DNA of 64,000 nt from Minisyncoccota bacterium (GCA_036405895.1 DASWWS010000002.1:124029-188028); one strand, 5' to 3'. Positions 20,747 to 36,596 are shown, numbered from the stretch's first letter. Notes: generated from the sequence alone by a model not told the origin. Numbers and translations: made by a program.

Positions 20747-21187
20747 CTAGCCGAGGACAGTACCTCCAGCTGCTTCAATTTTTGCTTTCGCAATGTCAGT
20801 AATCTGACATTCGCGGATAGTAACTGCCTTGGTGATTTCCCCTCCTGCGAGGATTTTCACAACCGGGATGCGGCCTTGTGAGCGGCGTACGAGACCTGCT
20901 GCAAAGAGTGCTGCTGGTGTAACTGATGCGCCTGCTGTAAATACGCGTTCGATTTGAGACACGTTTACAGGAGATGGCTTGATAGCAAAGGCCTTGTTGG
21001 TGTTCTTGCCGCGACCGCGAAGTTTTGGCAACTTCTTGATCATATCACGAATCATCGGGCGAATCTTGTGACCTGCACGAGCGCGCTGACCTTTGGTACC
21101 GCGACCAGAAGTCTTACCGCGCTTGCTACCGCGGCCGACGAGCTTTGCTTTCTTGTTTTCAGTTGTGCGCTTGATAGTGTTTAACAT
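20747..21187 (-). CDS. rplO: 50S ribosomal protein L15
   Basis: Family match and synteny. No L30 gene between it and rpsE. Confidence 0.9.
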   Translation of the reverse strand: MLNTIKRTTENKKAKLVGRGSKRGKTSGRGTKGQRARAGHKIRPMIRDMIKKLPKLRGRGKNTNKAFAIKPSPVNVSQIERVFTAGASVTPAALFAAGLVRRSQGRIPVVKILAGGEITKAVTIRECQITDIAKAKIEAAGGTVLG

Positions 21188-21197
21188 GGTAGTGATA

Positions 21198-21836
21198 TTA
21201 TTTCTTCTCTTGTGGAGCTACAGGAGCTGCTACAAATGTTTCTGCTGGCTTAGGAGCCGTGAACACGTGCTTAGTGCTGATAGTAGAAAGTGCCTTCATC
21301 ACCGCGCGCGCTGTGTTGAGCTTGTTCTTGCTTCCTGAAATTACTTTCCCTGAAACGTCTTTGAGTCCTGCGATAACAGCGATGTCGCGAAGTGCTGCAC
21401 CTACTACAAGCCCCTTACCATTGTTTGGGAAAAGCATCACCTTGCTTGAAGTGTACTTTGCATTCACATCGTGAGGAATAGAGTGCTTCTCTGTGCGCTT
21501 GATTTTGATTGCGTTTTTCTTTGCATCCTTGAGAGCCTTTGCAATAGCGAGGGCTGTGTCATTACCCTTCCCTGTTCCAACACCAACCACTCCGAGAAGC
21601 TTGTCTCCGATAATCATAGAAACGGCAAAACTCATACGGCGACCACCTGCAACCACGCGAGTAACTCGGCGGATATCAAGAATTTTTTGGTCAACGTCTT
21701 TTACGCGCTCTGTAAACGGTTTGCCGTCACGGCGAGGTCCGCGAGGACCTGAGCCACCTGCACCACCAGTGCGAGGACCGCGGCTTTGGTAGCTTGATGT
21801 GTTTGATGGAGTTGTAGGTGTAGTAGGTGTAGTCAT
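21198..21836 (-). CDS. rpsE: 30S ribosomal protein S5, with low-complexity N- and C-terminal extensions
   Basis: Core RVTRVVAGGRRMSF...GVGTGKG. N-terminal Thr/Pro/Gly-rich extension. Confidence 0.9.
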   Translation of the reverse strand: MTTPTTPTTPSNTSSYQSRGPRTGGAGGSGPRGPRRDGKPFTERVKDVDQKILDIRRVTRVVAGGRRMSFAVSMIIGDKLLGVVGVGTGKGNDTALAIAKALKDAKKNAIKIKRTEKHSIPHDVNAKYTSSKVMLFPNNGKGLVVGAALRDIAVIAGLKDVSGKVISGSKNKLNTARAVMKALSTISTKHVFTAPKPAETFVAAPVAPQEKK

Positions 21837-21844
21837 AAAAATGT

Positions 21845-22192
21845 TTAGAAGTTAAGTCCCGCTTCTCGAGCTGCGTCAGCTAAAGCTTTCACGCGACCTG
21901 CGTACTTAAAGCCGTTTCGGTCAAACACTACTGTGTCGATTCCTTTTGCTTTTGCAGCTGCTGCAATGCCCTTCCCGACCGTTTGCGCACTTTCCATCTT
22001 TGTTCCCTTTGCTTTTGGAAGATCGTTGAATGCCAAGAGGGTTACTGCTTTTACGTCATCAATAAGCTGAGCGTAGATATGTGTACTTGAACGAAAGACG
22101 CTCAAACGAGGGCGAGTGTCTGTGCCTGAAATAGTAGCACGAATCTTGCGCTTGATGCGGAGTTTCTTCTGTTGTGGCGTTTGTCGTGACAT
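21845..22192 (-). CDS. rplR: 50S ribosomal protein L18
   Basis: Family match and synteny. Confidence 0.9.
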
Positions 22193-22208
22193 ATAATTGA
22201 TTTATTGA

Positions 22209-22748
22209 TTATGCAGTCTTCTTACCTGCCTTGCGACGAATCACTTCGTTATCGTAGCGGAAGCCCTTACCCTTATATGGTTCTGGCTTTTTCTTTGCGC
22301 GTACTGATGCAGCGAATTCTCCCACAACTTCCTTGTTAATACCAGTGATAGTGATGTTATTCTTCTCTGCTGTTACAGTGAGGCCTTCAGGAATTGCAAT
22401 CACAACAGGGTGAGAGAAACCGAGTGCAAGGTGAAGATCAGTGCCTTTGACTTCGCTCTTAAAACCAACCCCTTCGAGGATAAGCTTTTTCACATACGGT
22501 GTGTTTACTCCAGCAATCATGTTCTTCACGTGTGAAGCATGTGTTCCCCAAATAGCGCGAGCAAATGAATCAGTCCCCTTTTGTTCAAAGGTAACGAGCG
22601 CGTTTGCAGCATCGATGTTGATAGTTACCACTTCAGGAAGATTTTTTTCGAGTGTGCCAAGTGGCCCCTTCACGCGGAGAATGCCTCCTTCGTATGTAAC
22701 TTCAGTATTAGCTGGGATTACCAATTGTTGTTTTCCTACTCTGCTCAT
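22209..22748 (-). CDS. rplF: 50S ribosomal protein L6
   Basis: Family match. Start moved to MSRVGKQQLVIP to avoid overlap with rpsH. Confidence 0.9.
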   Translation of the reverse strand: MSRVGKQQLVIPANTEVTYEGGILRVKGPLGTLEKNLPEVVTINIDAANALVTFEQKGTDSFARAIWGTHASHVKNMIAGVNTPYVKKLILEGVGFKSEVKGTDLHLALGFSHPVVIAIPEGLTVTAEKNNITITGINKEVVGEFAASVRAKKKPEPYKGKGFRYDNEVIRRKAGKKTA

Positions 22749-22752
22749 ATAA

Positions 22753-23142
22753 TTACCAAATTTTGAATAACGCTTCTCCACCGACCAATTCTTTCTTTGC
22801 CTGCTTGTCGCTGAGGATTCCTTTCGGAGTTGAAAGGATGATAAGACCGTGGCCGTTTTTCACTGGGCGAAGGTCGCGAGTGCCCATGTATACGCGGCGA
22901 GAAGACTTTGAAATACGCGCAACATCCTGAATCTTTGCAACACCGTCTTTGTACAAGAGTCCGATTTCAATAACAGGAATATTGTTCTTTTCTGTCTTCT
23001 TTGAAACATCAGAAACAAAGCCGTGCTCCTTAAGGCACTGTGCGATTGCGTACTTAAGCGCTGAAAAAGGCACTACCACACGGTCTTTTGAAACCATGGA
23101 AGCGTTTTTCATTGTGATGATCATGTTTGAGATTGAATCCAT
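22753..23142 (-). CDS. rpsH: 30S ribosomal protein S8
   Basis: Family match and synteny. Confidence 0.9.
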   Translation of the reverse strand: MDSISNMIITMKNASMVSKDRVVVPFSALKYAIAQCLKEHGFVSDVSKKTEKNNIPVIEIGLLYKDGVAKIQDVARISKSSRRVYMGTRDLRPVKNGHGLIILSTPKGILSDKQAKKELVGGEALFKIW

Positions 23143-23155
23143 AAAAATAGTGAGA

Positions 23156-23341
23156 TTACCAAGAAGACTTGCGAATACCCGGAATCATGCCCTCGTTGGC
23201 AAGTTCGCGGAAACAAATACGGCATAGCCCGAAATCGCGCATGTAGCCATGACGACGACCACACTTGAAACAGCGGTTTACAATGCGGGTGCTAAATTTT
23301 GGCGTCTTTTTGGAACGCGCAATAACGGATGTCTTTGCCAT
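23156..23341 (-). CDS. rpsN: 30S ribosomal protein S14, type Z (zinc-binding, 61 aa)
   Basis: [12 protein letters not shown]...CFKCGRRHG...CRIC, a C4 zinc ribbon. The ORF-track N-terminal extension was rejected. Confidence 0.85.
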
Positions 23342-23498
23342 ATTGATTGAACGTTCTGTGGAATATCGCGCGTTGCTTTCTTCTGTACTCAAAACTTGGG
23401 TAAAAAAGAGAGAAATGCGGATTACCAAAGAACTCGAGTATCTTATCAAATGAAGCTTCTTTCGTCAACCCGACTTCCCTATTAATAATAAAAGCCCC

Positions 23499-24059
23499 TT
23501 ATACAGGGGCTTTCGCTTCTTTTTGTAAGGCTATTTTCTGTGAAAAATGCTCATACACTTTTGAGTCCGCAAACAATGGATTTTTTACTATGAGCCATAA
23601 ATTATGGTCATACTCTGTCTCGACCAAAGCAATCACCTTCTCAACCATAGAGGGGGCGAGAAATGCGCCCCTTAAAACAAGAAAAGCATCTGGGGAAAGC
23701 TCTTTTGTTGAATAGCCATGCAATATGGTCAATCGATAGTCGTTTTCGGTTTGATCGATCCACGACTCGAGGTATGGCCCTAATAGCTTAGCAAAGTCAG
23801 AAATAAACCCTCCCGCTTCTTGATAGCATTCGAAAAGCTTGTTGATGTTTCTTAGGAAACCAAAACGCTCATCACTTTGAGGGTGAAGGGTTCCTATTCC
23901 ATATGAAAGAGTACTTTCAACATGAGTTCGTGTTGCCGCTTTTTTCTCTTTCAAAAGGGCTTCAGCATTATGATTCGATTTCAAGTAAAGAACCATTAAA
24001 GGGATTCCTGCGATGAAACCTCCTGTAAAGAAATAAATAATTCCATTCATAGTCTTCAA
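23499..24059 (-). CDS. Hypothetical membrane-anchored protein inserted between rpsN and rplE
   Basis: 186 aa, N-terminal TM helix, no family recognised. Flanked by terminator hairpins at 23483-23510 and 24096-24122. Confidence 0.5.
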   Translation of the reverse strand: MKTMNGIIYFFTGGFIAGIPLMVLYLKSNHNAEALLKEKKAATRTHVESTLSYGIGTLHPQSDERFGFLRNINKLFECYQEAGGFISDFAKLLGPYLESWIDQTENDYRLTILHGYSTKELSPDAFLVLRGAFLAPSMVEKVIALVETEYDHNLWLIVKNPLFADSKVYEHFSQKIALQKEAKAPV

Positions 24060-24095
24060 TTTTTTCCTGATACTACTCCCTTCCCCTTAAATGTC

Positions 24096-24122
24096 AAAGA
24101 CCGCCCTTGCGGGCGGTCTTTT
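24096..24122. terminator. Bidirectional terminator AAAGACCGCCCTTGCGGGCGGTCTTTT inside the spc operon
   Basis: Perfect GC hairpin flanked by A/T runs. Confidence 0.75.
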
Positions 24123-24131
24123 AGTAAAAAA

Positions 24132-24680
24132 TTATTTCTCTACTTCTTTCTTGAATGGGATTCCAAGGTGTTCGAAGAATGCGAGGGCTTCAGCTTTGGT
24201 CTTTGCAGAAGACACAAGAGTGATAGCAAGACCGAAGACATCGCGGAGGTCTTCGTCGGAAGTTTCCGGGAAGATAGAATGCTCCTTGATGCCGATAGTC
24301 ATGTTCCCGATTGAGTCCACAACCTTGCGATCAATTCCGCGGAAGTCTTTTGTACGAGGAAGCGCAATGTGGATGAGCTTGTCGACAAAGTGGTTCATGC
24401 GAGCGCCGCGAAGCGTTACCGTGAGTCCTACAGGATCCCCTTCACGGATCTTGAAGCTTGCCACTGACATCTTTGCCACGCGAAGCGTAGGCTTTTGGCC
24501 GGTGATGCGCATAAGGCGGTCTGCCACAAGGTTATTTCGTTCGCGGTCCTTCTTCATTCCTGAACCGGTTCCGCTTGAAACTACCACCTTCATGAGCTTC
24601 GGTGCTGCCATCTTGTTCTTGTAGCCAAACGCGCTGAGCGCTTCAGGTACTTTTTCTTGTTGTGCTTTAGTGAGTTGCAT
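24132..24680 (-). CDS. rplE: 50S ribosomal protein L5
   Basis: Family match and synteny. Confidence 0.9.
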   Translation of the reverse strand: MQLTKAQQEKVPEALSAFGYKNKMAAPKLMKVVVSSGTGSGMKKDRERNNLVADRLMRITGQKPTLRVAKMSVASFKIREGDPVGLTVTLRGARMNHFVDKLIHIALPRTKDFRGIDRKVVDSIGNMTIGIKEHSIFPETSDEDLRDVFGLAITLVSSAKTKAEALAFFEHLGIPFKKEVEK

Positions 24681-24684
24681 AAAA

Positions 24685-24993
24685 TTATTTTAGAGTCTTA
24701 CCGCTTTTCTTCTCAAATCGAACCTTTTTGCCGTCTTCAGTGCGTACACCGATGCGAGTACCGGTACCGGTCTTACTATCGATAAGCATAACATTTGATG
24801 CGTTGAATGCTACTTCAACTTCAACAATAGAGCCTTTCTCGGTCTTTGAACGAGCCTTGATGTGGCGCTTTGCCTTGTTTACACCGTCAACGATAACGCG
24901 ATTGGTTTCTTTGATAACACGCGCAACAGTCCCCTTCTGACCCTTGTTCTTGCCGGCTGTTACTATTACATTGTCTCCTTTTTTGATCTTCAT
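24685..24993 (-). CDS. rplX: 50S ribosomal protein L24
   Basis: KOW motif. Synteny. Confidence 0.9.
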   Translation of the reverse strand: MKIKKGDNVIVTAGKNKGQKGTVARVIKETNRVIVDGVNKAKRHIKARSKTEKGSIVEVEVAFNASNVMLIDSKTGTGTRIGVRTEDGKKVRFEKKSGKTLK

Positions 24994-25005
24994 AAAAATT
25001 TTGTA

Positions 25006-25377
25006 TTAGAGGACTTCAGGTGCCAATGACACGATTTTCTGATAGCCAAGTTCACTGATCTCACGTGGGATCGGTCCAAAGATGCGTCCAGCCTTCGGCT
25101 CTTTCTTTCCTTTATCAATGATAACAACAGCGTTGTCGTCAAAGCGGATGTATGAACCGTCCTTTCGGCGAAATGCTGTCTTTTGGCGTACTACTACACC
25201 ATATACCACATCCTTTTTCTTAATCGGCTTGCGAGGTTCTGCAACCTTTACAGAAAGCACTACCAAGTCGCCAATCATCGCATAGCGACGTCGTGAGCCG
25301 CCGAGCACCTTAAAAATCTTACCGATTTTACCGCCGCCGTTGTCTGTGATTTTTACTACTGTTCCTGCTTGTAACAT
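25006..25377 (-). CDS. rplN: 50S ribosomal protein L14
   Basis: Family match and synteny. Confidence 0.9.
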   Translation of the reverse strand: MLQAGTVVKITDNGGGKIGKIFKVLGGSRRRYAMIGDLVVLSVKVAEPRKPIKKKDVVYGVVVRQKTAFRRKDGSYIRFDDNAVVIIDKGKKEPKAGRIFGPIPREISELGYQKIVSLAPEVL

Positions 25378-25387
25378 ATAATTGAAA

Positions 25388-25633
25388 TTATGCTTTTACT
25401 ACTGAAAAGCGCTTGTCTTTTGAAATTGGGCGACCTTCAACAATAGAAACCAAGTCCCCTTTCTTTGCAGCATTGTCTTCGCTGTGAGCCTTGAACTTCT
25501 TTGTAATCTTGAGGTACTTTTTGTACTTCGGGTGCTTCACAAAACGGGTAACAGCAACAACCACCGTCTTGTCCATTTTGTCGGAGACGACTGTGCCTTT
25601 GAGTATTTTGTTTGTAGTGGTTGTTGTAGTCAT
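25388..25633 (-). CDS. rpsQ: 30S ribosomal protein S17
   Basis: Family match. Only 49 nt separate it from rplP, so there is no L29 gene. Confidence 0.9.
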
Positions 25634-25682
25634 ATTGCGTGTGTATAGTACTTATTTTTCAGTGTTTGGCAAGTTTGGGCGT

Positions 25683-26099
25683 TTATGCGCGTGCAACGAT
25701 GCGGGTCTTCACAGGAAGTTTTGTTCCCGCTTTGCGAAGGGCTTCGCGAGCGATAGCTTCATCAACTCCGTCTACCTCAAAGAGGATACGGCCAGGGAGC
25801 ACTTCTACGTGGTACCCTTCGAGATCACCCTTACCCTTACCCATCGGCTGCTGTGCAGCTTTTTCTGTAAACGGACGGTCTGGGAATACGCGAATCCACA
25901 TGCGGCCAACTTTTGTAAGGTGGCGAGATGCTGCCTTGCGGGCTGCTTCGATCTGGTTTGAAGTAACGCGGCCCATAGATTCTGTCTTAAGACCAAATGA
26001 TCCGAAGTTCACAAGCGTTCCGCGAGTTTCAACGCGCTCACTCATGTCAGTTCGTTTCTTTTGCCATTTTCGGTATTTTACTTTTTTAGGGAATAACAT
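25683..26099 (-). CDS. rplP: 50S ribosomal protein L16
   Basis: Family match and synteny. Confidence 0.9.
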   Translation of the reverse strand: MLFPKKVKYRKWQKKRTDMSERVETRGTLVNFGSFGLKTESMGRVTSNQIEAARKAASRHLTKVGRMWIRVFPDRPFTEKAAQQPMGKGKGDLEGYHVEVLPGRILFEVDGVDEAIAREALRKAGTKLPVKTRIVARA

Positions 26100-26110
26100 G
26101 ATAGTAACTC

Positions 26111-26776
26111 TTATTTCTTAGCGCCGTTAAAGACCATACCCTTGTAAATCCATACTTTGATACCGATACCACCGTATGCGAGGCGTGCTGTTTCGTGTGC
26201 GTAGTCAATATCCGCTCGAAGGGTCTGAAGTGGAACACTTCCGCGCTTTACCACTTCTGTACGAGAAATTTCAGCGCCGCCAAGACGTCCGCCAACATAG
26301 AACTTTGCACCCTGTACTCCGCGAACAGACATCACTTTCTCAATAAGAGTCTTCATAACACGACGGTACGGCATGCGCTTTTCAAGCCCTTCAGCAATCA
26401 TAAATGCAACGATTTTCGCATCCCCTTCTGGGTTTGTTACTTCGATGATTTCAAGCTTGATGTCGTCAGTGACAGTAAGGCCTGCCTGCTTAAGCGCCTT
26501 TACTAAGTCAGTCTTAAGCTTTGTTGCACCTTCACCACTTCGTCCGATAACCATACCTGGGCGTGAGGTGCGGATGATAACGCGGATAGACTTTTGCGCG
26601 CGTTCAAGTTCAACGCTTGATACATAAAAACCGCGAAGACGCTTTTCGAGGAACTGACGAATTGTTACATCAACCGCAAGGTTGTTAACATAGTTCTTGT
26701 CAGTTGCAAACCAGCGTGATTTCCAATCACGGAGGATAACAAGGCGGTGTGCATAAGGGTGTACTACTTTAGACAT
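26111..26776 (-). CDS. rpsC: 30S ribosomal protein S3
   Basis: KH domain. Start moved to MSKVVHPYAHRLVIL. Confidence 0.9.
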   Translation of the reverse strand: MSKVVHPYAHRLVILRDWKSRWFATDKNYVNNLAVDVTIRQFLEKRLRGFYVSSVELERAQKSIRVIIRTSRPGMVIGRSGEGATKLKTDLVKALKQAGLTVTDDIKLEIIEVTNPEGDAKIVAFMIAEGLEKRMPYRRVMKTLIEKVMSVRGVQGAKFYVGGRLGGAEISRTEVVKRGSVPLQTLRADIDYAHETARLAYGGIGIKVWIYKGMVFNGAKK

Positions 26777-26786
26777 ATTATAAAAA

Positions 26787-27131
26787 TTATTTAGATGATT
26801 TCTTAACTGGCGCTTCACCCAAAGTGACGTCGACATGGCTGGTGCGTTTATTGATGCGTTTTGCAACACCCATCGCACGAGCGCGGATACGCTTCATTAC
26901 GAGTCCCTTGTTTACTTCGATATTCTGGATAACGAGAGTAGAGGTGTCGGCACCGAGGTTGTAGGCATTTGCAGCAGCGCTCTTGATAAGCTTCTGGATA
27001 GGCTCAGCAGCGCGCTTTGGCATATATGAGAGCACAGTGTCAGCAGCAGCAAGTGACTTGCCTTTAACAGCGTTCGCTACGAGGCGGACTTTGCGGGGAC
27101 TTTGACGATAGTTAGTGAGTGATGCTTTCAT
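26787..27131 (-). CDS. rplV: 50S ribosomal protein L22
   Basis: Family match and synteny. Confidence 0.9.
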   Translation of the reverse strand: MKASLTNYRQSPRKVRLVANAVKGKSLAAADTVLSYMPKRAAEPIQKLIKSAAANAYNLGADTSTLVIQNIEVNKGLVMKRIRARAMGVAKRINKRTSHVDVTLGEAPVKKSSK

Positions 27132-27155
27132 ACGAATGTGTTAACTGAATAGAGT

Positions 27156-27503
27156 TTATTTCTTCTTAGCGTCTCCGCCTGAAGCTTTTGCTGACTTAGC
27201 AGCAGTGATTTCAGCTTCTTTTTTCTTCTGGTCGATATCCTTCTGCATCTTACCTCCGTGACGGGTAAACTTGCGAGTCGGTGAGAATTCACCCAAGCGG
27301 TGCCCTACCATATCTTCTGTTACGAGGACTTCGAGGTGAGCGCGTCCGTTGTGCACTCCAAAAGTGAAGCCAACCATTTCAGGCGCGATTTGTGAATCGC
27401 GTGACCATGTCTTGATAACGCCTGCAGCCATAGGCTGCTTGCCTTCAATCTTTTTGAGTAATTTTGGGTCAATGTATGGCCCTTTTGCGAGTGATCGTGT
27501 CAT
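27156..27503 (-). CDS. rpsS: 30S ribosomal protein S19, with a Lys-rich C-terminal extension
   Basis: [16 protein letters not shown] core. The C-terminal ~25 aa [28 protein letters not shown] is extra. Confidence 0.9.
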
Positions 27504-27623
27504 GTGAGAAAAAAAGAGGCTCTTTTTGAGCTCCGCATATCTTAGCAAATTACAGGGCAATGTCAAATATATGCTTTAACTAAAAAATTATTATGGATAA
27601 AAAGAGAAAAACCAAGGAATTAC

Positions 27624-28022
27624 TTACACCAAAAAGAGTAGTTTTGGAATGAAAATGATCGCTCCTATTGAGGCTGCACTGAGAACCGAGATAAGCACAG
27701 CGCCGGCTGCGACGTCTTTGGTATCTTTTGCGTACGGATGATACTCGGGGCTGGTGAGATCGATATCTATCTCAAAGGCGGTATTAATCGCTTCTGTTAC
27801 CAAAACAGCCGCCATCGCCAAAATAAGGATGCACCACTCCACCGGAGCGATGCGTAGCCATACCCCAAGAGCGGTTACAAGAGCTGCTGCGGCAATTTGG
27901 ATCCAAAAGTTGTGCTGGGTGCGCACAATGATGCGAAGTCCCCGTACGGCGTATTTAAAGCTTCGAGCGCGTGCGATAAGCGAGAACCGTTTCTTTTCCG
28001 AAATATGTTTTACAGCATTCAT
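27624..28022 (-). CDS. dgkA: diacylglycerol kinase / undecaprenol kinase family (DgkA-like) membrane protein inserted between rplB and rpsS
   Basis: Three TM helices and the EAINTAFE motif of prokaryotic DAGK. Confidence 0.7.
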   Translation of the reverse strand: MNAVKHISEKKRFSLIARARSFKYAVRGLRIIVRTQHNFWIQIAAAALVTALGVWLRIAPVEWCILILAMAAVLVTEAINTAFEIDIDLTSPEYHPYAKDTKDVAAGAVLISVLSAASIGAIIFIPKLLFLV

Positions 28023-28057
28023 AGCGTGAGTATAGCAAACAAACAGCAGATACCCCT

Positions 28058-28166: not shown

Positions 28167-28181
28167 TAGTTACTATAGAGA

Positions 28182-29352: not shown

Positions 29353-29356
29353 ATAA

Positions 29357-30133
29357 TTATTTCATCTTAGCTTCTAGAACTGCTACTGCATCCGACGGAT
29401 TCACCACCACAATTGCGTGGAAGGTTGCAACAACAAGTGCGTTGAGCGCTACAGCTGTCGTAAGTGTTACTCCTGGAAGGTTTGCAAAGCTTAGTGCAAG
29501 CGTGTCATTGGTTTCCGGAAGCACGATAAGAACCCCGGTCTTTTTCTTTGTTGTAAGCTTTTCAAAGCCTGCAATACTAGCGAGAGTAGAGAGTACGCTT
29601 GAAGCGTCTTTTGTCTTGATTGCGTCGAGTGAAAGGGTGTCCACAAAAAGGATAGCACTGTCAGCAAACTTCTTAGAGAGCACAGTATAGAGAGCTTTTA
29701 CGCGCATCTTCTTGTTGATCTTCTGAGAGTAGTCTTTGTCGTTGCGTGGACCGAATGTCACACCACCGCCAACCCAAATTGGGGAGCGATTTGAACCGTG
29801 ACGAGCGCGTCCTGTTCCCTTCTGCTTCCATGGCTTTTTACCGCCACCGCGTACTTCGCTGCGGTCTTTAGTGTGTGCTGTTCCTGCACGCATGTTTGCC
29901 TGCATTCCAACAACAACCTGGTGCACAAGGTCGCCATTCCATTTCAGTCCAAATACTGACCCAGGAAGCGCGATTGTTCCGGCTGCCTTTGCAGACTGGC
30001 TGTAGATAGGAGCTGAAAGTTCAGCAACTGCCTTTTTCTCTTTTGGCACTTTTGCTACAACTGACTTAGGCGCCGCTGTCTTGGCAACTGTCTTCTTCGC
30101 AACTGTTTTCTTTGTAGGAGTTGTTTCTTTCAT
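29357..30133 (-). CDS. rplD: 50S ribosomal protein L4, with a ~55-aa Lys/Ala-rich N-terminal extension
   Basis: L4 core begins around ...LPGSVFGLKWNGDLVHQVV. Start placed at MKETTPTKK, just after the rplC stop. Confidence 0.85.
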   Translation of the reverse strand: MKETTPTKKTVAKKTVAKTAAPKSVVAKVPKEKKAVAELSAPIYSQSAKAAGTIALPGSVFGLKWNGDLVHQVVVGMQANMRAGTAHTKDRSEVRGGGKKPWKQKGTGRARHGSNRSPIWVGGGVTFGPRNDKDYSQKINKKMRVKALYTVLSKKFADSAILFVDTLSLDAIKTKDASSVLSTLASIAGFEKLTTKKKTGVLIVLPETNDTLALSFANLPGVTLTTAVALNALVVATFHAIVVVNPSDAVAVLEAKMK

Positions 30134-30137
30134 AAAA

Positions 30138-30761
30138 TTATTTGTTGATCGTCTCAAAAATCTGGACAATAGTGCCTCGACGACCTGGTACTGCTCCGCT
30201 AATAGCAATAGTGTTTGTTGCTACATCCACTGCCACTACTTTGAGGCCTTTTACAGTCACGATATCTCCACCAGTACGTCCTGCCATGCGCATGCCTTTT
30301 ACAACACGTCCGCCAGCGCGTCCTGGACCTCCACCGATAGAACCAGCTTCGCGTTCAGAGTGCTTCTGACCGTGAGAGCGAGGACCTCCTTTAAAGCCGT
30401 GGCGCTTAACCACACCCTGGAAACCTTTCGCCTTTGAAGTACTGGTAACAGTAACATCGTCTCCAGCTTCGAACATTTCTACATTGATAGTGTCGCCAAT
30501 AGCCTGTCCAACTTCGTCTGCACGGAATTCCTTCACTGCTTTGTAGCCTTTGCCGCCGTGCGCGCCAAGAACAGCCTTTGTAACGCGGCTTTCCTTCTGT
30601 TCTTCTGTAGCAAGTGCGATAGCGCTGTAGCCGTCACGTTCAAGCGTTTTGATAGCAGTTACCACGTTAGGCATCGCCTGAATAAGGGTAACTGGGGTGA
30701 CACGGCCGCTTTCATCAAAGCGCTGTGACATATTGATTTTTCTTCCGAGGATATATTTCAT
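30138..30761 (-). CDS. rplC: 50S ribosomal protein L3
   Basis: Family match and synteny. Confidence 0.9.
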   Translation of the reverse strand: MKYILGRKINMSQRFDESGRVTPVTLIQAMPNVVTAIKTLERDGYSAIALATEEQKESRVTKAVLGAHGGKGYKAVKEFRADEVGQAIGDTINVEMFEAGDDVTVTSTSKAKGFQGVVKRHGFKGGPRSHGQKHSEREAGSIGGGPGRAGGRVVKGMRMAGRTGGDIVTVKGLKVVAVDVATNTIAISGAVPGRRGTIVQIFETINK

Positions 30762-30909
30762 ACTGTTCGTGCCCCTCCGCCCCTTATAAATGCGGGACTG
30801 GAGTTATTGGGTATTGGACCATTGCATATAGTAATACGTGCAAGTGGGTAGGATTATACACGGCTTCAAAAAAAGTGCAACTTTTCTTATAAAACCTAAT
30901 GATGTAAAC

Positions 30910-30936
30910 AAAAAGCCCCCTTTCGGGGGCTTTTTG
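30910..30936. terminator. Bidirectional terminator AAAAGCCCCCTTTCGGGGGCTTTTTG between rpsJ and rplC
   Basis: Hairpin plus T-run inside a 176-nt spacer that separates S10 from L3. Confidence 0.8.
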
Positions 30937-30937
30937 T

Positions 30938-31282
30938 TTACATCATCTTAACGTCGATGTCGACACCAGAAGGCATGGATAGGTTCGTCAGAGATTCGAT
31001 TACCTTCGGAGAAGGGTTTTCGATATCGATGAGGCGCTTGTGAACGCGCATCTCGAACTGCTCGCGCGAGTTCTTGTAGATGAACGGAGAGCGGTTCACA
31101 GTGTACTTCTTGATTTCAGTCGGAAGCGGGATCGGACCGCGCACTACTGCGTCATAACGCACTGCAGTGTCGATGATCTGCTTGACTGAAGCGTCAAGAA
31201 TTTTGTTTTCGTAGGCGCGTACGCGAATGCGGAGCATGCTTTGTACGTCGTCTTTTTTAGGTTTTGCTGTTTTTGTTGCCAT
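30938..31282 (-). CDS. rpsJ: 30S ribosomal protein S10
   Basis: Family match. Confidence 0.9.
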   Translation of the reverse strand: MATKTAKPKKDDVQSMLRIRVRAYENKILDASVKQIIDTAVRYDAVVRGPIPLPTEIKKYTVNRSPFIYKNSREQFEMRVHKRLIDIENPSPKVIESLTNLSMPSGVDIDVKMM

Positions 31283-31381
31283 GTTGTGAAGAGCTCGGTG
31301 AGGGTCGGACTGTCGCAGTGGTGAGTTCTGATGTTTTCACGCTCTACGCCCCGGTTCCGCAAACCATTATTCTAATACTGA

Positions 31382-32575
31382 TTAGGCAATAACCTTAGTT
31401 ACCACTCCGGCACCGACTGTGCGGCCACCTTCGCGGATAGCGAAACGCATTTGGTCTTCAACACCAACTGGAACAACAAGTTTAACGTTGATCTTCACAG
31501 TGTCCCCTGGCATAACCATTTCTGTTCCTGCTGGGAGTGTTACTTCACCGGTAACGTCAGTTGTACGGATGTAGAACTGAGGCTTGTAACCGTTGATGAA
31601 AGGAGTGTGACGACCACCTTCTTCCTTTTTAAGAACGTAGATTTCACCTTCGAATTCTGTGTGAGGTTTTACTGAGCCAGTCTTTGCGAGCACCTGTCCA
31701 CGAGTAAGGTCTTCCTTTTTCACACCACGGAGGAGAATACCTGCGTTGTCACCTGCCATACCTTCAGTCAACTGCTTGTTGAACATTTCGATACCGGTAA
31801 CAGTAGTCTTCATAGTATCTTTGATACCAACGATTTCTACTTCTTCACCAACTTTCACGATACCGCGCTCGATACGGCCAGTTACCACTGTACCGCGACC
31901 TTCAATAGAGAAGATGTCTTCGATCGGCATAAGGAAAGGCTTGTCGATGTCACGTTCTGGAAGTGGGAAGTACGTGTCGAGAGCGTTTGTAAGCTCAAGA
32001 ACCTTCTGTGCCCATTCGTCGTCGATAGAAGTAGCTTCAAGTCCCTTAAGACCTGATCCGCGGATGATAGGACAATCCTTGTCAAAGCCCTGTTTCTCAA
32101 GGATTTCACGGATTTCTTCTTCCACGAGTTCGATCATGTCAGGATCATCAACCATGTCGCACTTGTTGAGGAACACGATGATTTTTGGAACACCCACCTG
32201 CTTCGCAAGGAGGATGTGTTCGCGAGTCTGAGGCATAGCACCGTCAGTCGCAGCAACCACGAGCACAGCACCGTCCATCTGAGCGGCACCAGTAATCATG
32301 TTCTTGATGTAGTCGGCGTGGCCTGGTGCATCAATGTGAGCGTAGTGACGAGACGCTGTTTCGTACTCGTTGTGTGAGATGTTGATAGTAATACCACGCG
32401 CCTTTTCTTCAGGTGCGCCGTCAATATCGCTAACTCCTTTCATTTTAACTTTGTCTCCGTTCATGTTCAAAACATGAAGGATCGCCGCTGTAAGGGTAGT
32501 CTTACCGTGGTCAACGTGACCGATGGTACCTACGTTTACGTGCGGCTTTGAGCGATCAAATGCTTCTGCAGCCAT
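31382..32575 (-). CDS. tuf: elongation factor Tu
   Basis: [19 protein letters not shown]-motifs. Start moved to [14 protein letters not shown]. Confidence 0.95.
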
Positions 32576-32742
32576 AATAATATACTGATTAATTAAGTAA
32601 TAAGTTCCAAACAAAAACAATCTGCCCGACGCCGTTTAAAGAGCGCGGACGCAAAAATGATTGTGGGCGTATCGTACTATAAATTGGAAGCCTCTGTCAA
32701 ACCACTCTTCTATACAAAATCCCCTCTTATGAGGGGATTTTG

Positions 32743-32922
32743 TTATTTTGCTGCAGCAAGCGCTGCTTCTCCTTCTCTAATTTTTGCCAACAATGCTTTT
32801 GATTCTTTGTCGAGATTTTCCTCTCCACCAATGGAGTTTAATTCGGCTTGTATTTCTTGGCTCTGTCGGGCAATTTTCTGATCCAAAGTTTCAGGAGAAA
32901 GGGTTTTTTCAAAATTTTCCAT
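32743..32922 (-). CDS. Small hypothetical protein (59 aa, predicted helical, acidic)
   Basis: Hand-translated MENFEKTLSPETLDQKIARQSQEIQAELNSIGGEENLDKESKALLAKIREGEAALAAAK. Followed by a terminator at 32714-32742. Below the ORF-track length cut-off. Confidence 0.3.
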   Translation of the reverse strand: MENFEKTLSPETLDQKIARQSQEIQAELNSIGGEENLDKESKALLAKIREGEAALAAAK

Positions 32923-32924
32923 AA

Positions 32925-33086
32925 TTATCCTTGTGCTGCTGTTAATGCGTCCTTTATATTCTTGATATATTTCTTCAATACGTCATAAGAAAAGCTGATT
33001 TCCTGAAGCAGTTCTTCTTGCTCAAGGTCTGTAGCCTCCCCCATTTGTACTTTTTCGATTAGCTCGTCCATTCGTGCCTGATCCAT
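32925..33086 (-). CDS. Small hypothetical protein (53 aa, predicted helical, acidic)
   Basis: Hand-translated MDQARMDELIEKVQMGEATDLEQEELLQEISFSYDVLKKYIKNIKDALTAAQG. Its stop lies 2 nt before the start of the next small ORF. Confidence 0.3.
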   Translation of the reverse strand: MDQARMDELIEKVQMGEATDLEQEELLQEISFSYDVLKKYIKNIKDALTAAQG

Positions 33087-33168
33087 AGTGTTGTACTACT
33101 CTTTCCTTGTAATAGCAACAGTATAGCATTTTAAGACAAAGACCGGCATAACCGGTCTTTGTTGAGTA

Positions 33169-35310
33169 CTATTTTCGAGATTCGATAATCGTTGCCGCAA
33201 CGTTTTGCGGAACAATGTCGTAGCGGAGGAATTCCATCGTAAACGATGCGCGTCCTTCGGTCATAGAACGAAGCGTTGTCATGTATCCGAACATTTCTGA
33301 AAGAGGAACAATGGCGTTGACCACCTGGTTCATACCGCGAGATTCCATGCCCTCAATGATTCCACGGCGAGATGACATAGAACCCGTAACGTCGCCGAAG
33401 AATTTCTCAGGGGTCACCACTTCCACCTTCATCATCGGTTCGAGGATCACCGGCTTTGCAGCATTTGCTGCGTCTGTGATTGCCATTGAAGCGGCAATTT
33501 TAAACGCCATTTCGTTTGAGTCGACTTCGTGGTAGCTACCGTCATAGAGTTCAACGGAAACATTTTCCATTTTAAAGCCTGCAAGAATACCGCGGTCCAA
33601 GCCTTCCTTGAATCCTTTTTCGATCGGCGGAATGTATTCACCCGGAATCGCACCACCTTTGATAGTGTTGACGATTTCAAGCGTACCGATGCGCTTCACA
33701 TTTTTTGGAAGGTCTTTCGGATCAGCTGACTGATCAAGCGGCTTGATGCGGATTTTTACGTGACCGTAGTTACCCTTACCACCAGACTGTTTGATGTACT
33801 TCCCTTCAGCCTGCGCTTCAGCGGTGATTGTTTCGCGATATGCAACCTGTGGCTTCCCTACATTTGCTTCCACGTTGAACTCGCGCTTCATGCGGTCAAC
33901 AATGATTTCCAAATGAAGTTCACCCATGCCGGCAATAATTGTTTCTTCTGTTTCAGGATCGGTCGACACTTTGAATGTCGGGTCTTCCTGGGCAAGGCGG
34001 TTGAGTGCAAGACCCATTTTTTCTTGGTCTGCCTTTGTCTTTGGTTCAATGCGAAGGTTAATCACGGGTTCCGGGAAGGTAATACGGTCAAGGAGAATTG
34101 GTGTCTTTTCGTCACAGAGTGTGTCAGAAGTGTTTGTCTCTTTAAGACCAACAGCTGCAGCGATTTCACCTGCAAACACTTTTTTCACTTCTTCACGCTG
34201 GTCAGCCTGCATACGAACAATACGGCTCATGCGCTCTTTGTTTCCAGTGCGCGGGTTGTATACATATGACCCTGCTTCAAGTGTACCTGAGTACACACGG
34301 AAGAAGACGAGCTGTCCGACGAACGGGTCAGCCATGGACTTAAACGCAAGCGCTGCAAAAGGAGCCTTGTCGTCGGCTGGGCAAAGCACTTCTTCGTCAG
34401 TGTCAGGGTTCGTTGCACTAACAGGCTTAATATCAGTCGGAGCCGGAAGATAATCGACAACAGCATCAAGCACGAGCTGAACGCCTTTGTTCTTCAAAGC
34501 AGACCCTGCGTATACAGGGAAGATATCGTTGGCAATAACTGCCTTTCGAAGCATTTTCTTAAGGTCAGCGTATGCAGGCTCGTTTCCTTCAAGATATGCA
34601 TTCATCATTGCTTCGTCGTTTTCAACAATGCGTTCAACGAATTCTGCATGGTACTTCTTGGCATCCTCCATCATGTTTTCAGGGATATCCTTTTCGATCA
34701 CTTTATTTCCCATTTCGCCCTCAAAGTAAAATGCTTTCATTTTCAAAAGGTCTACTACCCCTTCGTGGTTTTCCTCAAGTCCTATCGGAAGCTGTGCGCG
34801 AACCGCTTTCTTTGAAAGACGGTCAAGGATGGTTTTGTATGAGTGTTCAAATGATGCACCGGTACGGTCAAGCTTGTTCACAAAACAAATACGAGGAACA
34901 TTGGCCTCATCGGCATAGCGCCAGTTGGTTTCGGACTGCGGTTCAACACCTGCAACACCGTCAAACACCACAACAGCGCCGTCGAGTACGCGAAGTGAGC
35001 GCTTCACTTCAACAGTAAAGTCGATGTGTCCCGGAGTGTCGATAACGTTGAATCGGAAACGACTGTCCTTTGATCCATTTGCGTACGTTGGAATCCAGGT
35101 ACAAGAAACTGCAGCAGCAGTAATAGTGATACCTCGCTCGCGCTCCTGTTCCATCCAGTCGGTAGTTGTTTCGCCGTCGTGCACTTCCCCGATCTTGTGG
35201 CTCTGTCCTGTGTAGTAGAGCACGCGTTCTGAAGTAGTGGTCTTACCCGCATCAATGTGCGCGATAATACCGAAGTTTCTTGTTTTTTCGAGTGAATATT
35301 CCCGTTCCAT
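33169..35310 (-). CDS. fusA: elongation factor G
   Basis: 713 aa. AHIDAGKTT and other GTPase motifs, plus EF-G domains IV and V. Confidence 0.95.
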   Translation of the reverse strand: MEREYSLEKTRNFGIIAHIDAGKTTTSERVLYYTGQSHKIGEVHDGETTTDWMEQERERGITITAAAVSCTWIPTYANGSKDSRFRFNVIDTPGHIDFTVEVKRSLRVLDGAVVVFDGVAGVEPQSETNWRYADEANVPRICFVNKLDRTGASFEHSYKTILDRLSKKAVRAQLPIGLEENHEGVVDLLKMKAFYFEGEMGNKVIEKDIPENMMEDAKKYHAEFVERIVENDEAMMNAYLEGNEPAYADLKKMLRKAVIANDIFPVYAGSALKNKGVQLVLDAVVDYLPAPTDIKPVSATNPDTDEEVLCPADDKAPFAALAFKSMADPFVGQLVFFRVYSGTLEAGSYVYNPRTGNKERMSRIVRMQADQREEVKKVFAGEIAAAVGLKETNTSDTLCDEKTPILLDRITFPEPVINLRIEPKTKADQEKMGLALNRLAQEDPTFKVSTDPETEETIIAGMGELHLEIIVDRMKREFNVEANVGKPQVAYRETITAEAQAEGKYIKQSGGKGNYGHVKIRIKPLDQSADPKDLPKNVKRIGTLEIVNTIKGGAIPGEYIPPIEKGFKEGLDRGILAGFKMENVSVELYDGSYHEVDSNEMAFKIAASMAITDAANAAKPVILEPMMKVEVVTPEKFFGDVTGSMSSRRGIIEGMESRGMNQVVNAIVPLSEMFGYMTTLRSMTEGRASFTMEFLRYDIVPQNVAATIIESRK

Positions 35311-35540
35311 ATATATTGTGTGTATTTGTTGTGTTAATGCTTGTTATCGTCCGTTAAATAGAGTGTGCATACTATACCGAGAGATGGCTTTTTTCGCAAT
35401 AGCAAAGACTGCATTTGCCGAAAATAAAAATCCGCCGGAGTATGAAGCCGGCGGACCTGTTAACCTTTATTAAAACAATGAAAAAGCTTCAAATTCGGCG
35501 TAAGAGCCCTTTCATATCGGACTATACCACTCTCAAAACA

Positions 35541-35572
35541 AAAAGCAACCATGGGTGGCTGCTTTTTGTTTT
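35541..35572. terminator. Terminator-like hairpin AAAAAGCAACCATGGGTGGCTGCTTTTTG between rpsG and fusA
   Basis: Imperfect hairpin flanked by A/T runs in a 386-nt spacer. Confidence 0.55.
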
Positions 35573-35696
35573 TGTGTAAAAAAAGTGATTACCAAGCGAA
35601 GTGAGGGACTACGACTCTACAGCGGCGTTGCCGCTAAGACCTGCATGCTCCACTTTGCAACTGGAAAAACAAAATCCTCTTGCGGGGACTTGGTTT

Positions 35697-36167
35697 TTAC
35701 CAGGCAAAGTGGGCAAATGCCTTGTTGGATTCTGCCATTTTGTGGGTATCCTTGCGCTTTTTAACCGCATTTCCTTCACCTTTTGCAGCAAGCATCAACT
35801 CATCAGCAAGAGCAATAGATGTTTTCACACCCTTGCGAGCGCGCGCTGAGTCAATAATCCATCGCATTGCGAGTGCATTACGGCGTTCTGTACGAACTTC
35901 GCGAGGAACCTGGTAGTTAGCACCTCCGATGCGACGTGAGCGAACTTCCACCAATGGTCCAGCATTCTTCATTGCTGTTTCAAAAGTTTCGAGAGGGTCC
36001 TCTACCGCTTCCTTTTCCTTGATGATATCCATCGCGCCATACACCACAGTGCGAGCAGTGTTTTTCTTGCCGTCCTGCATGATGCAGTTAATAAACTTCT
36101 CGAGTCTCTCTGAAGAGTACTTGATGTCAGGCTTAACGATATTTCGATTTGTTACTTTTCTTCGCAT
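35697..36167 (-). CDS. rpsG: 30S ribosomal protein S7
   Basis: Family match. str-operon synteny. Confidence 0.9.
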   Translation of the reverse strand: MRRKVTNRNIVKPDIKYSSERLEKFINCIMQDGKKNTARTVVYGAMDIIKEKEAVEDPLETFETAMKNAGPLVEVRSRRIGGANYQVPREVRTERRNALAMRWIIDSARARKGVKTSIALADELMLAAKGEGNAVKKRKDTHKMAESNKAFAHFAW

Positions 36168-36173
36168 AATAGT

Positions 36174-36596
36174 TTATTTCTTTGCTGCCTTAGGAAGCTT
36201 GGTACCGTAGAGTGAGCGGCTCTTTCGGCGCTTTTCAATACCCTGAGTATCAAGAACACCGCGTACTACGTGGTAGCGTACACCGATCAAGTCCTTTACG
36301 CGGCCTCCGCGGATCATTACCACTGAGTGTTCCTGAAGGTTGTGCCCTTCACCTGGGATGTAGCCGGTTACTTCCTGACCGTTGGTAAGGCGAATACGAG
36401 CAATTTTTCGAATCGCAGAGTTAGGCTTCTTTGGAGTAGTGGTAGTTACCTTTGTACACACGCCACGCTTAAACGGAGACGGATAGAATACCGGCTTGTT
36501 GTGGATGTGGTTCATGCCGCGCGACAAAGCAATCGCTTTTGGTTTGCGACGGACATTTACGCGGGGTCGTTTGATAAGTTGACTGATTCGAGCCAT
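36174..36596 (-). CDS. rpsL: 30S ribosomal protein S12
   Basis: Family match, including the conserved PKKPNSA region. Confidence 0.9.

Follow-up and report, generated by a model that had tools for sequence, protein, structure and literature searches.

Predicted transcription units, a putative L29 deletion scar and a candidate S8-binding leader in the str-S10-spc cluster of a Paceibacterota bacterium

Introduction

How is a ribosomal protein gene cluster organised when some of its usual members are missing and unrelated genes lie among the rest? This question is raised by a 64,000-nucleotide (nt) stretch of DNA from a Minisyncoccota bacterium (GCA_036405895.1, DASWWS010000002.1:124029-188028), referred to here as the window. 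Positions 20,747-36,596, in the numbering of the whole window, hold the str-S10-spc ribosomal protein cluster of a Paceibacterota (Parcubacteria/Nomurabacteria-like) bacterium of the Candidate Phyla Radiation (CPR), with all cluster genes on the minus strand. A first-pass annotation had described a ribosomal super-operon without L30 (rpmD) and L29 (rpmC), interrupted by two foreign genes and by internal terminators, and encoding extended ribosomal proteins. Its observations were accurate: the L29 and L30 slots are empty, and the terminators, the extensions and the pilin genes after map are present. Two parts of its interpretation, the foreign origin of dgkA and the recent interruption of the cluster, did not hold up. 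Since CPR bacteria are uncultured, the composition of their ribosomes and the regulation of their genes can be read only from sequence.

We propose that L29 was deleted in place, that the cluster is divided into separate transcription units, and that the unit starting with rpsN opens with a leader resembling an S8-binding site. Jointly, these three elements provide the best overall explanation of the locus, and we consider it quite probable. Most features of the cluster are ordinary for its clade and have partly been published, namely the loss of L30, the lineage-specific loss of L29 and the S19 tail. The deletion scar and the recurrent loss of L29 in Paceibacterota, the fixed insertion slots and the candidate S8-mimic leader are added here. 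The leader is the most interesting and testable of these items.

Materials and methods

Genes were assigned with the curated cut-offs of Pfam, and NCBIfam and Rfam were also scanned. The comparison set consists of the 80 best-matching L16 loci (L001-L080), each with 10-kb flanks, in which every gene junction was measured. Hairpin strength is given in kcal/mol and as a z-score. An L29 profile was built using the open reading frames (ORFs) found in the L16-S17 gap of 39 relatives. The tree of the loci was made by neighbour-joining from eight concatenated proteins and is approximate.

The nearest L16 relatives are Paceibacterota/Nomurabacteria metagenome-assembled genomes (MAGs), with identity up to 91%. 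The titles of the 80 loci name Nomurabacteria, Paceibacterota, Parcubacteria, Patescibacteria, Minisyncoccia, Yonathbacteria, 'uncultured Candidatus Saccharibacteria' and uncultured bacterium. The closest relatives of the marker proteins belong to the CPR/Paceibacterota, and an orphan protein of 183 amino acids (aa) encoded within the cluster is labelled Candidatus Paceibacterota by NCBI.

Results

A putative deletion scar in place of L29

The stop codon of rplP and the start codon of rpsQ are 49 nt apart, and this spacer contains neither an ORF nor a structure (folding z +0.87). The clade L29 profile, which recovers all 39 of its source ORFs with E values of 2e-15 to 3e-28, found no match in the six-frame translation of the 64-kb window (best E 3.2) or in approximately 10 kb past its 3' end. 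The absence of L29 reported by the first-pass annotation is thus established for the locus, the window and this adjoining sequence; genome-wide, L29 would be absent as well. In the relatives, the L16-S17 gap is bimodal, measuring 10-88 nt in 41 loci and 186-479 nt in the other 39. Each of the long gaps holds an ORF of 57-74 aa, and PF00831 matches three of the four that were scanned. No relocated copy of L29 was found within 10 kb on either side in any of the 41 L29-lacking loci, and no second copy in any of the 80. The gene is also missing from its canonical site in the near-complete single-contig relatives AWSN01000001 (RAAC4_OD1_1), LBRL01000001 and CBFHKH010000001. On the tree, L29-lacking loci form at least two large clades, together with scattered cases.

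The subclade to which the window belongs has one member that keeps L29, L004, and its L29 is very divergent. The 49-nt spacer can be aligned with L004 starting ~20 nt before the end of the L29 ORF and continuing into the sequence downstream. A promoter-like rpsQ site, TTGCCA-16-TACTAT, lies inside the spacer at 25645-25672. It represents an element present across the subclade, in which T(C/A)GACA or TTGCCA is followed by 16 nt and TAnnAT, with 9-22 nt between its end and the rpsQ start. No such element is present in the other large clade without L29, where rplP nearly abuts rpsQ. The alignment with L004 suggests that the spacer is a deletion scar retaining the 3' end of the L29 gene. L29 would have been lost by an in-place deletion between rplP and rpsQ, which spared the last ~20 nt of the gene because they would carry the -35 box of the rpsQ promoter. 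The same type of loss would have been repeated within the clade. With its scar and a close relative that has a divergent copy, this locus would be a clean, datable case of a loss that recurs in one clade. The protein, uL29, lines the peptide exit site, the docking place of trigger factor, the signal recognition particle (SRP) and SecY, and L29-less lineages are therefore natural experiments on such a ribosome.

Two further observations concern this subject. Against PF00831, the L29 copy of L004 (2760-3041 in that locus) reaches 29.3 bits, a score that would be consistent with a relaxation of selection prior to loss, and a set of 5.8 billion proteins contains just 2 clusters of L29 of this type. 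The docking place of trigger factor is beside uL23/uL29. The trigger factor encoded in the window (61990-63039, plus strand) is only 349 aa long and has N- and C-terminal domains with no match to the peptidyl-prolyl isomerase domain; its retention in an apparently L29-less organism is worth a look.

Some candidates for a displaced L29, or for compensation of its loss, were rejected. Two small ORFs between fusA and tuf were the top hits of the L29 profile, but their E values of 3.2-3.7 are noise, their isoelectric points are 4.3-4.7 and they match no family. L23 is on average longer in L29-lacking loci (median 108 versus 93 aa), but in several L29-bearing clades it is longer still (127-145 aa). 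The length differences of L24 seem to reflect the choice of start codon. No consistent signal emerged.

The slot of L30 is empty too, as the first-pass annotation had noted. The window's rpsE-rplO gap of 10 nt leaves no room for the gene, and in 60 relatives this gap does not exceed 128 nt. uL30 has been published as absent from all CPR (PMC9297842).

Separate transcription units

Strong terminators had been claimed for the rpsJ-rplC (176 nt) and rpsG-fusA (386 nt) spacers, and both contain strong hairpins (z -10.6 and z -4.8). Overall, the cluster contains nine hairpins of the intrinsic-terminator type, with z-scores of -3.0 to -10.6. The terminator scan found 35, compared to 21.1 ± 4.6 in shuffled sequence. 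In some of the predicted terminators, the U-run is short or paired with an upstream A-run. The tuf-S10, dgkA-S19 and L16-S17 spacers are all unstructured and contain no hairpins. Every spacer longer than 45 nt has a sigma-70-like match, except the 99-nt tuf-S10 spacer. Promoters of rpsS, rpsN, rplC, tuf and rpsQ are conserved together with leaders in the subclade, and those of rpsS and rpsN are conserved in nearly all 80 loci. It is this position and conservation that argue for the promoter-like sites being real.

These features suggest that the cluster is not one operon; it would consist of approximately nine separately promoted units, an arrangement normal for the clade. The predicted units are S12-S7, fusA, the pair of small ORFs, tuf-S10, L3-L2, dgkA joined to S19-L5 (where S17 would have a further promoter inside the unit), the orphan gene and S14-map. 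Every unit would open with a sigma-70-like promoter, and most would close with an intrinsic terminator. Transcripts would be expected to start ~7 nt past the -10 boxes at 35371, 33120, 32671, 30853, 28029, 27539, 25645, 24070 and 23440. Since the L2/S19 and L5/S14 junctions carry conserved promoters and leaders, these separate units appear to be old.

The spacers contain some other elements. In the S7-fusA spacer, a unit of ~100 nt (35421-35530, minus strand) has an extended -10 box, TGGTATAGT, at one end and a canonical terminator at the other. No Rfam match was found in this unit, which could represent a small RNA or encode a leader peptide (MKGLLRRI). Near-identical perfect palindromes of 19-23 nt, of the CTAGCAAGGACSGTCCTTGCTAG and GAAGGAC-GTCCTTC types, are found between genes at 28059-28081, 4349-4371 and 61064-61082, and also at 28107-28133 and 10219-10239. 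These may be a repetitive extragenic palindromic (REP)-like or shared-terminator element. The idea that the spacers are mobile repeats was rejected, as only these short palindromes recur.

Fixed slots for variable genes

The first-pass annotation regarded a dgkA-like gene between rplB and rpsS as a foreign insertion. Its product matches PF01219 over profile positions 1-102 of 102, scoring 113.9 bits against a cut-off of 22.3, and also matches E. coli DgkA structures (E 7e-9). The E..N..E..D and KD motifs, whose residues we presume to be catalytic, are identical in the alignment to 3ze3_A. No NCBIfam equivalog matches the protein. It is predicted to be a lipid kinase of the DgkA/undecaprenol-kinase family, with a sequence that does not distinguish the substrate. 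The gene has a guanine-plus-cytosine (GC) content of 48.9%, which is native, and it is found between rplB and rpsS on the same strand in 31 of the 80 loci, usually 70-110 nt 5' of rpsS. Both facts argue against a foreign origin and suggest that dgkA is a long-standing resident of the L2/S19 slot. It was also claimed that each inserted gene is flanked by terminator hairpins. This is correct on both sides of the orphan gene, while dgkA has such a hairpin only upstream. The dgkA-S19 spacer (z +0.28) carries a promoter-like site and, since no terminator follows dgkA, its transcription probably continues into rpsS.

The 183-aa orphan between rplE and rpsN has no match in Pfam or NCBIfam, no tblastn match in the 80 relatives and, among 5.8 billion proteins, only itself. 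The protein starts with a hydrophobic stretch and its gene has a GC content of 39.9%. An AlphaFold model from the single sequence is all-helical (pLDDT 68, the model's own confidence score), and its fold has no Foldseek match in the PDB (best E 0.54). The gene would be a recent orphan in the L5/S14 slot. The 593-nt fusA-tuf spacer holds the two acidic ORFs (53 and 59 aa), which the first-pass annotation had overlooked. They have a GC content of 39-40%, no family match and no homolog in the 80 relatives. These two and the 183-aa gene appear to be the only lineage-specific orphans of the cluster.

The position of the inserts follows the junctions of the clade. Gaps of more than 300 nt occur at L2/S19 in 46 of 56 loci, at L5/S14 in 52 of 66, at fusA/tuf in 14 of 19 and at secY/adk in 16 of 48. 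At S10/L3 they occur in 5 of 51 loci, four of which are in the window subclade. Nearly all other junctions have 0-2 such loci, and the six at L16/S17 are L29-bearing. All 50 relatives have 26-216 nt between tuf and S10, and in 6 relatives the S7-fusA gap is only 12-81 nt, compared to 386 nt in the window. Of the 248 ORFs in the slots, 163 are singletons, and they are mostly unrelated genes; recurrent tenants are dgkA, pyrimidine-synthesis genes and pilins. L2/S19 and L5/S14 would thus be ancient, clade-wide boundaries that serve as slots for variable genes, tolerating insertions because they lie between independent units. The width of these two junctions in the relatives, with their conserved promoters and leaders, does not agree with the claim of a recently interrupted super-operon. 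The ribosomal cluster of this clade appears to be organised unlike textbook operons, with fixed slots that collect dgkA, pyrimidine genes, pilins and orphans.

A second clade, including L017, L024, L047, L063 and other loci, has pyrimidine-synthesis-like genes beside dgkA in the L2/S19 slot. By the appearance of their sequences, they encode orotate phosphoribosyltransferase, orotidine monophosphate (OMP) decarboxylase, dihydroorotase and dihydroorotate dehydrogenase.

A candidate S8-binding leader of rpsN

A leader of ~90 nt (23348-23437) lies between the rpsN promoter and the rpsN start codon, and it recurs 5' of rpsN in relatives. RNAalifold, applied to a MAFFT alignment of 47 copies, predicted two helices, P1 and P2, with compensatory changes in 14 of 17 pairs. 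In the modelled layout, the outer helix is followed by a single unpaired base and two pairs; then come an asymmetric loop, P1, an internal loop, P2 and a tip that varies. Covariation is strong in the inner helix, P1. The covariation score of the leader is 0.64 versus 0.24 and was exceeded by none of 500 shuffles. In the structure resembling helix 21 of 16S rRNA, 87.4% of alignment cells pair, compared to 66.2% in shuffles and 34-49% when the partners are slid. A covariance model of the leader hit 63 of the 67 rpsN-bearing sequences exactly once each, on the coding strand and in every case within the rplE-rpsN interval. The median distance from the end of the hit to the rpsN start is 14 nt, and rpsN is followed by rpsH. 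There were no further hits with E <0.1 in 1.37 Mb. The window leader scores 57.2 bits (E 2e-9).

The core of the leader is invariant, consisting of 5'-(A/G)AUC and GAUAU(U/C)-3'. In the window, these are AAUC (within 23417-26) and GAUAUU (within 23360-70). In the numbering of 16S rRNA, the equivalents of A597, U598, C599, G639, A640, A642 and U643 are invariant in 47 sequences, and U641 is present in at least 90%. The core is in register with the rRNA: an unpaired 595, the 596-644 and 597-643 pairs, U598, C599-G639, A640, U641 and A642. The 596-644 equivalent is AU in 33 copies, GC in 28 and CG in 1; it is never unpaired, and one unpaired column precedes it. The 597-643 position, which in rRNA is a G-C able to form a triple with 641, is always paired as well (A-U in 59 of 62, G-C in 2, C-G in 1). 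Two loci, L024 and L040, carry the G597-C643 pair. L024 has AGUC/GAUACU, which we take to be the E. coli sequence.

The features of the S8-binding site in helix 21, including the invariant A642, were taken from PMC4176348. The rpsN leader has an invariant unpaired A642 after A640 and U641, it has the 596-644 pair, and it lies near a start codon on the mRNA that encodes S8. Its core thus appears to reproduce the S8-binding loop, which makes it a candidate S8 autoregulatory leader. Excess free S8 would bind the leader and block the initiation of rpsN translation, and the downstream genes would be repressed by coupling. On balance, we lean towards an undescribed leader family, present across much of Paceibacterota and independent of the gammaproteobacterial operator, through which S8 would autoregulate rpsN-rpsH-...-secY by mimicking helix 21. 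S8 autoregulation, if true, would explain why L5/S14 is a fixed break and an insertion slot, and this junction would then be a functional boundary between operons in the entire clade. No Rfam leader matched at gathering score in the window. At E values up to 1 over 20000-37000, Rfam gave only terminator-like chance hits, none of them at 23348-23437. Neither rpsN, rpsH nor Parcubacteria is named in the text of a survey that reports 20 new ribosomal leaders.

Hairpins were also observed in other leaders. Just before the rpsS start, in most of the 80 loci, lies (A/G)AGCUC-loop-GAGCU(U/C) followed by a U-rich run, 3' of a clade-wide promoter, ATTTGAC(A/T)-17-TGCTAnTAT. The switch between A-U and G-C at the base of this hairpin suggests a real structure, and it could be an attenuator or another ribosomal protein leader. 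In the tuf leader (32608-32664, minus strand), a hairpin that is also conserved in the subclade is followed by UUGUUUUUGUUUG, resembling a terminator within the 5' untranslated region (UTR), and may serve the tuf-rpsJ unit as an attenuator. The rpsS and tuf hairpins may be further regulatory elements of the same kind as the rpsN leader. In the rplC leader (30762-30852, minus strand), a GGAC...GUGGUCCAAUG hairpin is conserved in the subclade in which S10 and L3 are separated, and this could be an L4-type regulatory site.

Protein extensions

L4, S19 and S5 had been described as extended, and the coordinates of their Pfam domains bear this out. The L4 domain starts at residue 54 of 258, after a Lys/Ala/Thr-rich N-terminal extension of 53 aa. 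The S19 domain ends at residue 82 of 115 and is followed by a Lys/Ala-rich C-terminal tail of 33 aa. In S5, the domain starts at residue 49 of 212, with a Thr/Pro/Gly/Arg-rich N-terminal extension of 48 aa and a C-terminal extension of 24 aa. The proteins of relatives are of the same sizes (S19 112-132 aa, S5 181-248 aa, L4 219-261 aa). The extensions are traits of the clade and not peculiar to one genome. An Ala/Lys-rich C-terminal tail of uS19, ~25 aa long, has been described as specific to Parcubacteria (PMC9297842).

Gene content and neighbourhood

Every ribosomal protein, as well as fusA, tuf, secY, adk and map, scored above the curated Pfam cut-offs, confirming the gene order and coordinates of the first-pass annotation (Table 1). 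Read along the minus strand, the genes follow each other as rpsL-rpsG / fusA / the two small ORFs / tuf-rpsJ / rplC-D-W-B / dgkA / rpsS-rplV-rpsC-rplP-rpsQ-rplN-X-E / orphan gene / rpsN-rpsH-rplF-R-rpsE-rplO-secY-adk-map, then pilins.

Table 1. Features of the ribosomal protein cluster and its 3' neighbours, in the direction of transcription
Feature	Position	Strand	Evidence or remark
rpsL	36174-36596	-	Pfam S12; 6 nt from rpsG; unit 1
rpsG	35697-36167	-	Pfam S7
S7-fusA spacer, 386 nt	35311-35696	-	two strong hairpins, -10-like site, fusA promoter-like site
Strong A/T-flanked hairpin, S7-fusA spacer	35535-35572	-	-22.6 kcal/mol, z -4.8
Extended -10 box TGGTATAGT, S7-fusA spacer	35521-35529	-	promoter-like match
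Canonical terminator, S7-fusA spacer, GTCCGCCGG...CCGGCGGAT + U-run	35421-35456	-	z -3.0
fusA promoter-like site	35371-35399	-	promoter-like match
fusA (EF-G)	33169-35310	-	Pfam
Predicted terminator after fusA	33136-33162	-	-18.6 kcal/mol, z -4.2
Extended -10 box of small ORFs	33120-33128	-	promoter-like match
Small ORF, 53 aa	32925-33086	-	acidic orphan
Small ORF, 59 aa	32743-32922	-	acidic orphan
Predicted terminator after 59-aa ORF	32714-32743	-	z -7.1
tuf-rpsJ unit	30938-32700	-	promoter-like site, leader hairpin, tuf, rpsJ
tuf promoter-like TTGACA-18-TACGAT	32671-32700	-	conserved in subclade
tuf	31382-32575	-	Pfam
rpsJ	30938-31282	-	Pfam
Predicted terminator after rpsJ, 23-bp perfect hairpin, A-tract 5', T-tract 3'	30898-30947	-	-39.2 kcal/mol, z -10.6
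rplC-rplD-rplW-rplB unit	28182-30880	-	Pfam; promoter and leader alignment
rplC promoter-like TTGCAC-16-TATAAT, TG just 5' of -10	30853-30880	-	conserved in subclade
rplC	30138-30761	-	Pfam
rplD	29357-30133	-	Pfam
rplW	29041-29352	-	Pfam
rplB	28182-29027	-	Pfam
Predicted terminator after rplB	28136-28162	-	with two palindromes; z -5.3 and -6.3
Palindromes after rplB	28107-28133, 28059-28081	-	three-hairpin region 28059-28162
dgkA-family gene (DAGK_prokar), 132 aa	27624-28022	-	PF01219 113.9 bits
rpsS-rplV-rpsC-rplP-rpsQ-rplN-rplX-rplE unit	24132-27566	-	Pfam; conserved promoter and leader hairpin
rpsS promoter TTGACA-16-TAAGAT (predicted)	27539-27566	-	conserved clade-wide
rpsS leader hairpin, short	27509-27534	-	conserved clade-wide
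rpsS	27156-27503	-	Pfam
rplV	26787-27131	-	Pfam
rpsC	26111-26776	-	Pfam
rplP	25683-26099	-	Pfam
rplP-rpsQ spacer, 49 nt	25634-25682	-	putative L29 deletion scar
rpsQ	25388-25633	-	Pfam
rplN	25006-25377	-	Pfam
rplX	24685-24993	-	Pfam
rplE	24132-24680	-	Pfam
Orphan gene cassette	23491-24121	-	terminator, promoter-like site, 183-aa ORF, terminator
Predicted terminator after rplE, overlapping orphan-gene -35	24096-24121	-	z -6.5
Orphan-gene promoter-like TTGACA-16-TAGTAT	24070-24097	-	promoter-like match
Orphan ORF, 183-186 aa	23499-24050/24059	-	no family match
Predicted terminator after orphan gene	23491-23513	-	z -4.2
rpsN promoter (predicted) + structured leader	23348-23468	-	covariance model 57.2 bits, E 2e-9
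rpsN promoter TTGACG-17-TAAGAT (predicted)	23440-23468	-	conserved clade-wide
rpsN-to-map unit, tightly packed	18034-23341	-	Pfam; gaps
rpsN, 61 aa, zinc-ribbon type	23156-23341	-	Pfam
rpsH	22753-23142	-	Pfam
rplF	22209-22748	-	Pfam
rplR	21845-22192	-	Pfam
rpsE	21198-21836	-	Pfam
rplO	20747-21187	-	Pfam
secY	19455-20726	-	Pfam
adk	18821-19408	-	Pfam
map	18034-18798	-	Pfam
Three type IV pilin-like genes	16537-18016	-	PF07963 (N_methyl), TIGR02532

As the first-pass annotation had noted, pilin genes and not infA-rpoA genes follow map; there are three, with the N_methyl motif. No alpha-operon genes were found among the window ORFs scanned, and in the relatives, too, the alpha operon does not follow adk/map. 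Pilins separate adk from map in one close relative; in others, adk is followed by a kinase-like gene. Instead of rpoBC, the sequence 5' of rpsL has genes for a CarboxypepD_reg-domain protein of 659 aa and an M50 peptidase, together with ComEC-related genes. Among the products of the ORFs scanned elsewhere in the window are type IV pilus machinery, PGK, TIM, RecJ, RecG, FtsH, NusA and trigger factor.

Several RNA genes lie elsewhere in the window. A type-II tRNA with a long variable arm (3693-3779, minus strand) has the anticodon loop UUACUAA, giving the anticodon ACU (Ser, AGU). This A34 tRNA-Ser is unusual, and a normal tRNA-Ser(GCU) is nearby at 4579-4664. A tRNA-Ile with the anticodon UAU (9577-9651, plus strand) may point to AUA decoding that does not use lysidine (TilS). 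At 12455-12841, on the minus strand, lies a tmRNA gene of full length (108.7 bits).

Discussion

Some observations weigh against the explanation proposed here and lend support to others. L29 could have moved elsewhere in the genome or diverged beyond recognition while staying on the ribosome. The search covered ~74 kb of a source contig of at least 276 kb, and Pfam scores the L29 of this clade weakly (29-36 bits, with one copy failing), so a divergent relocated copy could escape ordinary annotation; the L29 copy of L004 is very divergent. We nevertheless think that a relocated or unrecognised L29 is improbable, as the scar points to deletion in place, none of the 41 L29-lacking loci has a copy within 10 kb on either side, and the two clusters of L004-type L29 come from a protein collection that contains the proteins of the source genome. 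Lineage-specific loss of uL29 in CPR has also been published already (PMC9297842). The number of independent losses is uncertain, given the approximate tree. A similarly low probability is given to the view of the first-pass annotation, in which two foreign genes recently broke up a single super-operon and transcription reads through internal terminators that are leaky. The 183-aa gene and the small ORFs look as recent acquisitions would, with their low GC and lack of relatives, and read-through is compatible with evidence drawn from sequence alone. Promoter-like matches are not above chance overall (25 versus 20.9 ± 4.8), and the hairpin directly after rpsG is weak (35665-35691, z -1.2). However, dgkA has native GC and occupies the same position in the relatives, and the break points, with their promoters and leaders, are common to the clade, which argues that the breaks long predate the present inserts. 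Another explanation for the whole arrangement is an artefact of assembly or binning, such as a chimeric contig or a collapsed region, since the sequence derives from a MAG. This can hardly be the case: the L16-S17 junction, dgkA and the orphan gene are identical in independent assemblies of five sequencing runs, synteny and equal gaps are found in dozens of unrelated MAGs, and GC is even along the whole cluster.

The rpsN leader could be a real RNA structure without being an S8 operator. It might instead be a 5' stabilising stem-loop, a site for S14 or L5, or an element responding to zinc or growth rate; the rpsN product is of the zinc-ribbon type. Its outer helix pairs in only ~60-70% of alignment cells, with many pair types. 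The usual A-U in place of G597-C643, a one-base bulge beside G639 and the RNA-contact tripeptide of the clade's S8, which is S-T-P in 55 of 66 relatives where S-T-S/T is usual, all depart from the canonical site. We regard these non-S8 functions as rather unlikely, since the S8 core is matched in register at both flanking pairs and at each unpaired base that is conserved, the 596-644 pair covaries, A642 is invariant, and L024 and L040 have the G597-C643 of E. coli. In addition, the gene for S8 comes second within the unit, and the motif directly adjoins the start codon. As a separate observation, the S-T-P of S8 (22753-23142) might be connected with the A-U pair that the leader has at 597-643.

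In E. coli, the cluster is split between S17 and L14, and tuf is the last gene of the str operon. All genes shared with the str, S10 and spc operons of E. coli are in the same order here, from rpsL to secY. The splits differ: this cluster is divided at S7/fusA, fusA/tuf, S10/L3, L2/S19 and L5/S14, and S10 travels with tuf. The cluster also lacks L29 and L30, has adk and map after secY, and has the alpha operon elsewhere. Compared to DgkA (PF01219) generally, the kinase matches over its full length and keeps the acidic and KD motifs of the E. coli crystal-structure sequence; it differs in its fixed site within a ribosomal protein cluster, just 5' of rpsS, across a CPR clade.

In their work on CPR ribosomes, Tsurumaki et al. 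(2022, RNA 28:1041, PMC9297842; citing Brown et al. 2015) likewise give uL30 as absent, with rpsE beside rplO, uL29 among the proteins lost in a lineage-specific manner, and the uS19 tail. Their text names only some Peregrinibacteria for uL29. Here, the loss is found in Paceibacterota, in about half of the 80 loci and at least two clades, with a putative scar and a kept internal promoter. Neither of two papers about OD1 genomes, PMC3812714 and PMC4508563, refers to L29, L30 or ribosomal proteins.

The candidate leader is best compared to the S8 operator of E. coli. Like that operator, it is a helix with an asymmetric loop and equivalents of A595, 596-644, 597-643, U598, A640, U641 and A642, and it is situated beside a start codon on the S8-encoding mRNA. 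The translational operator of the E. coli spc operon is reportedly an rRNA mimic of helix 21, as Olins and Nomura in 1981 and Merianos and colleagues in 2004 are said to have described. The E. coli operator lies at the rplE start, whereas the Paceibacterota leader lies in the 5' UTR of rpsN and differs in its A-U at 597-643, the bulge beside G639, an extra covarying helix P2 and a variable tip. According to PMC3616713, the E. coli element is confined to Gammaproteobacteria, and on that account the rpsN leader would be an independent invention. If it binds S8, it would be among very few cis-regulatory RNAs proposed for CPR, and a case of convergent rRNA mimicry.

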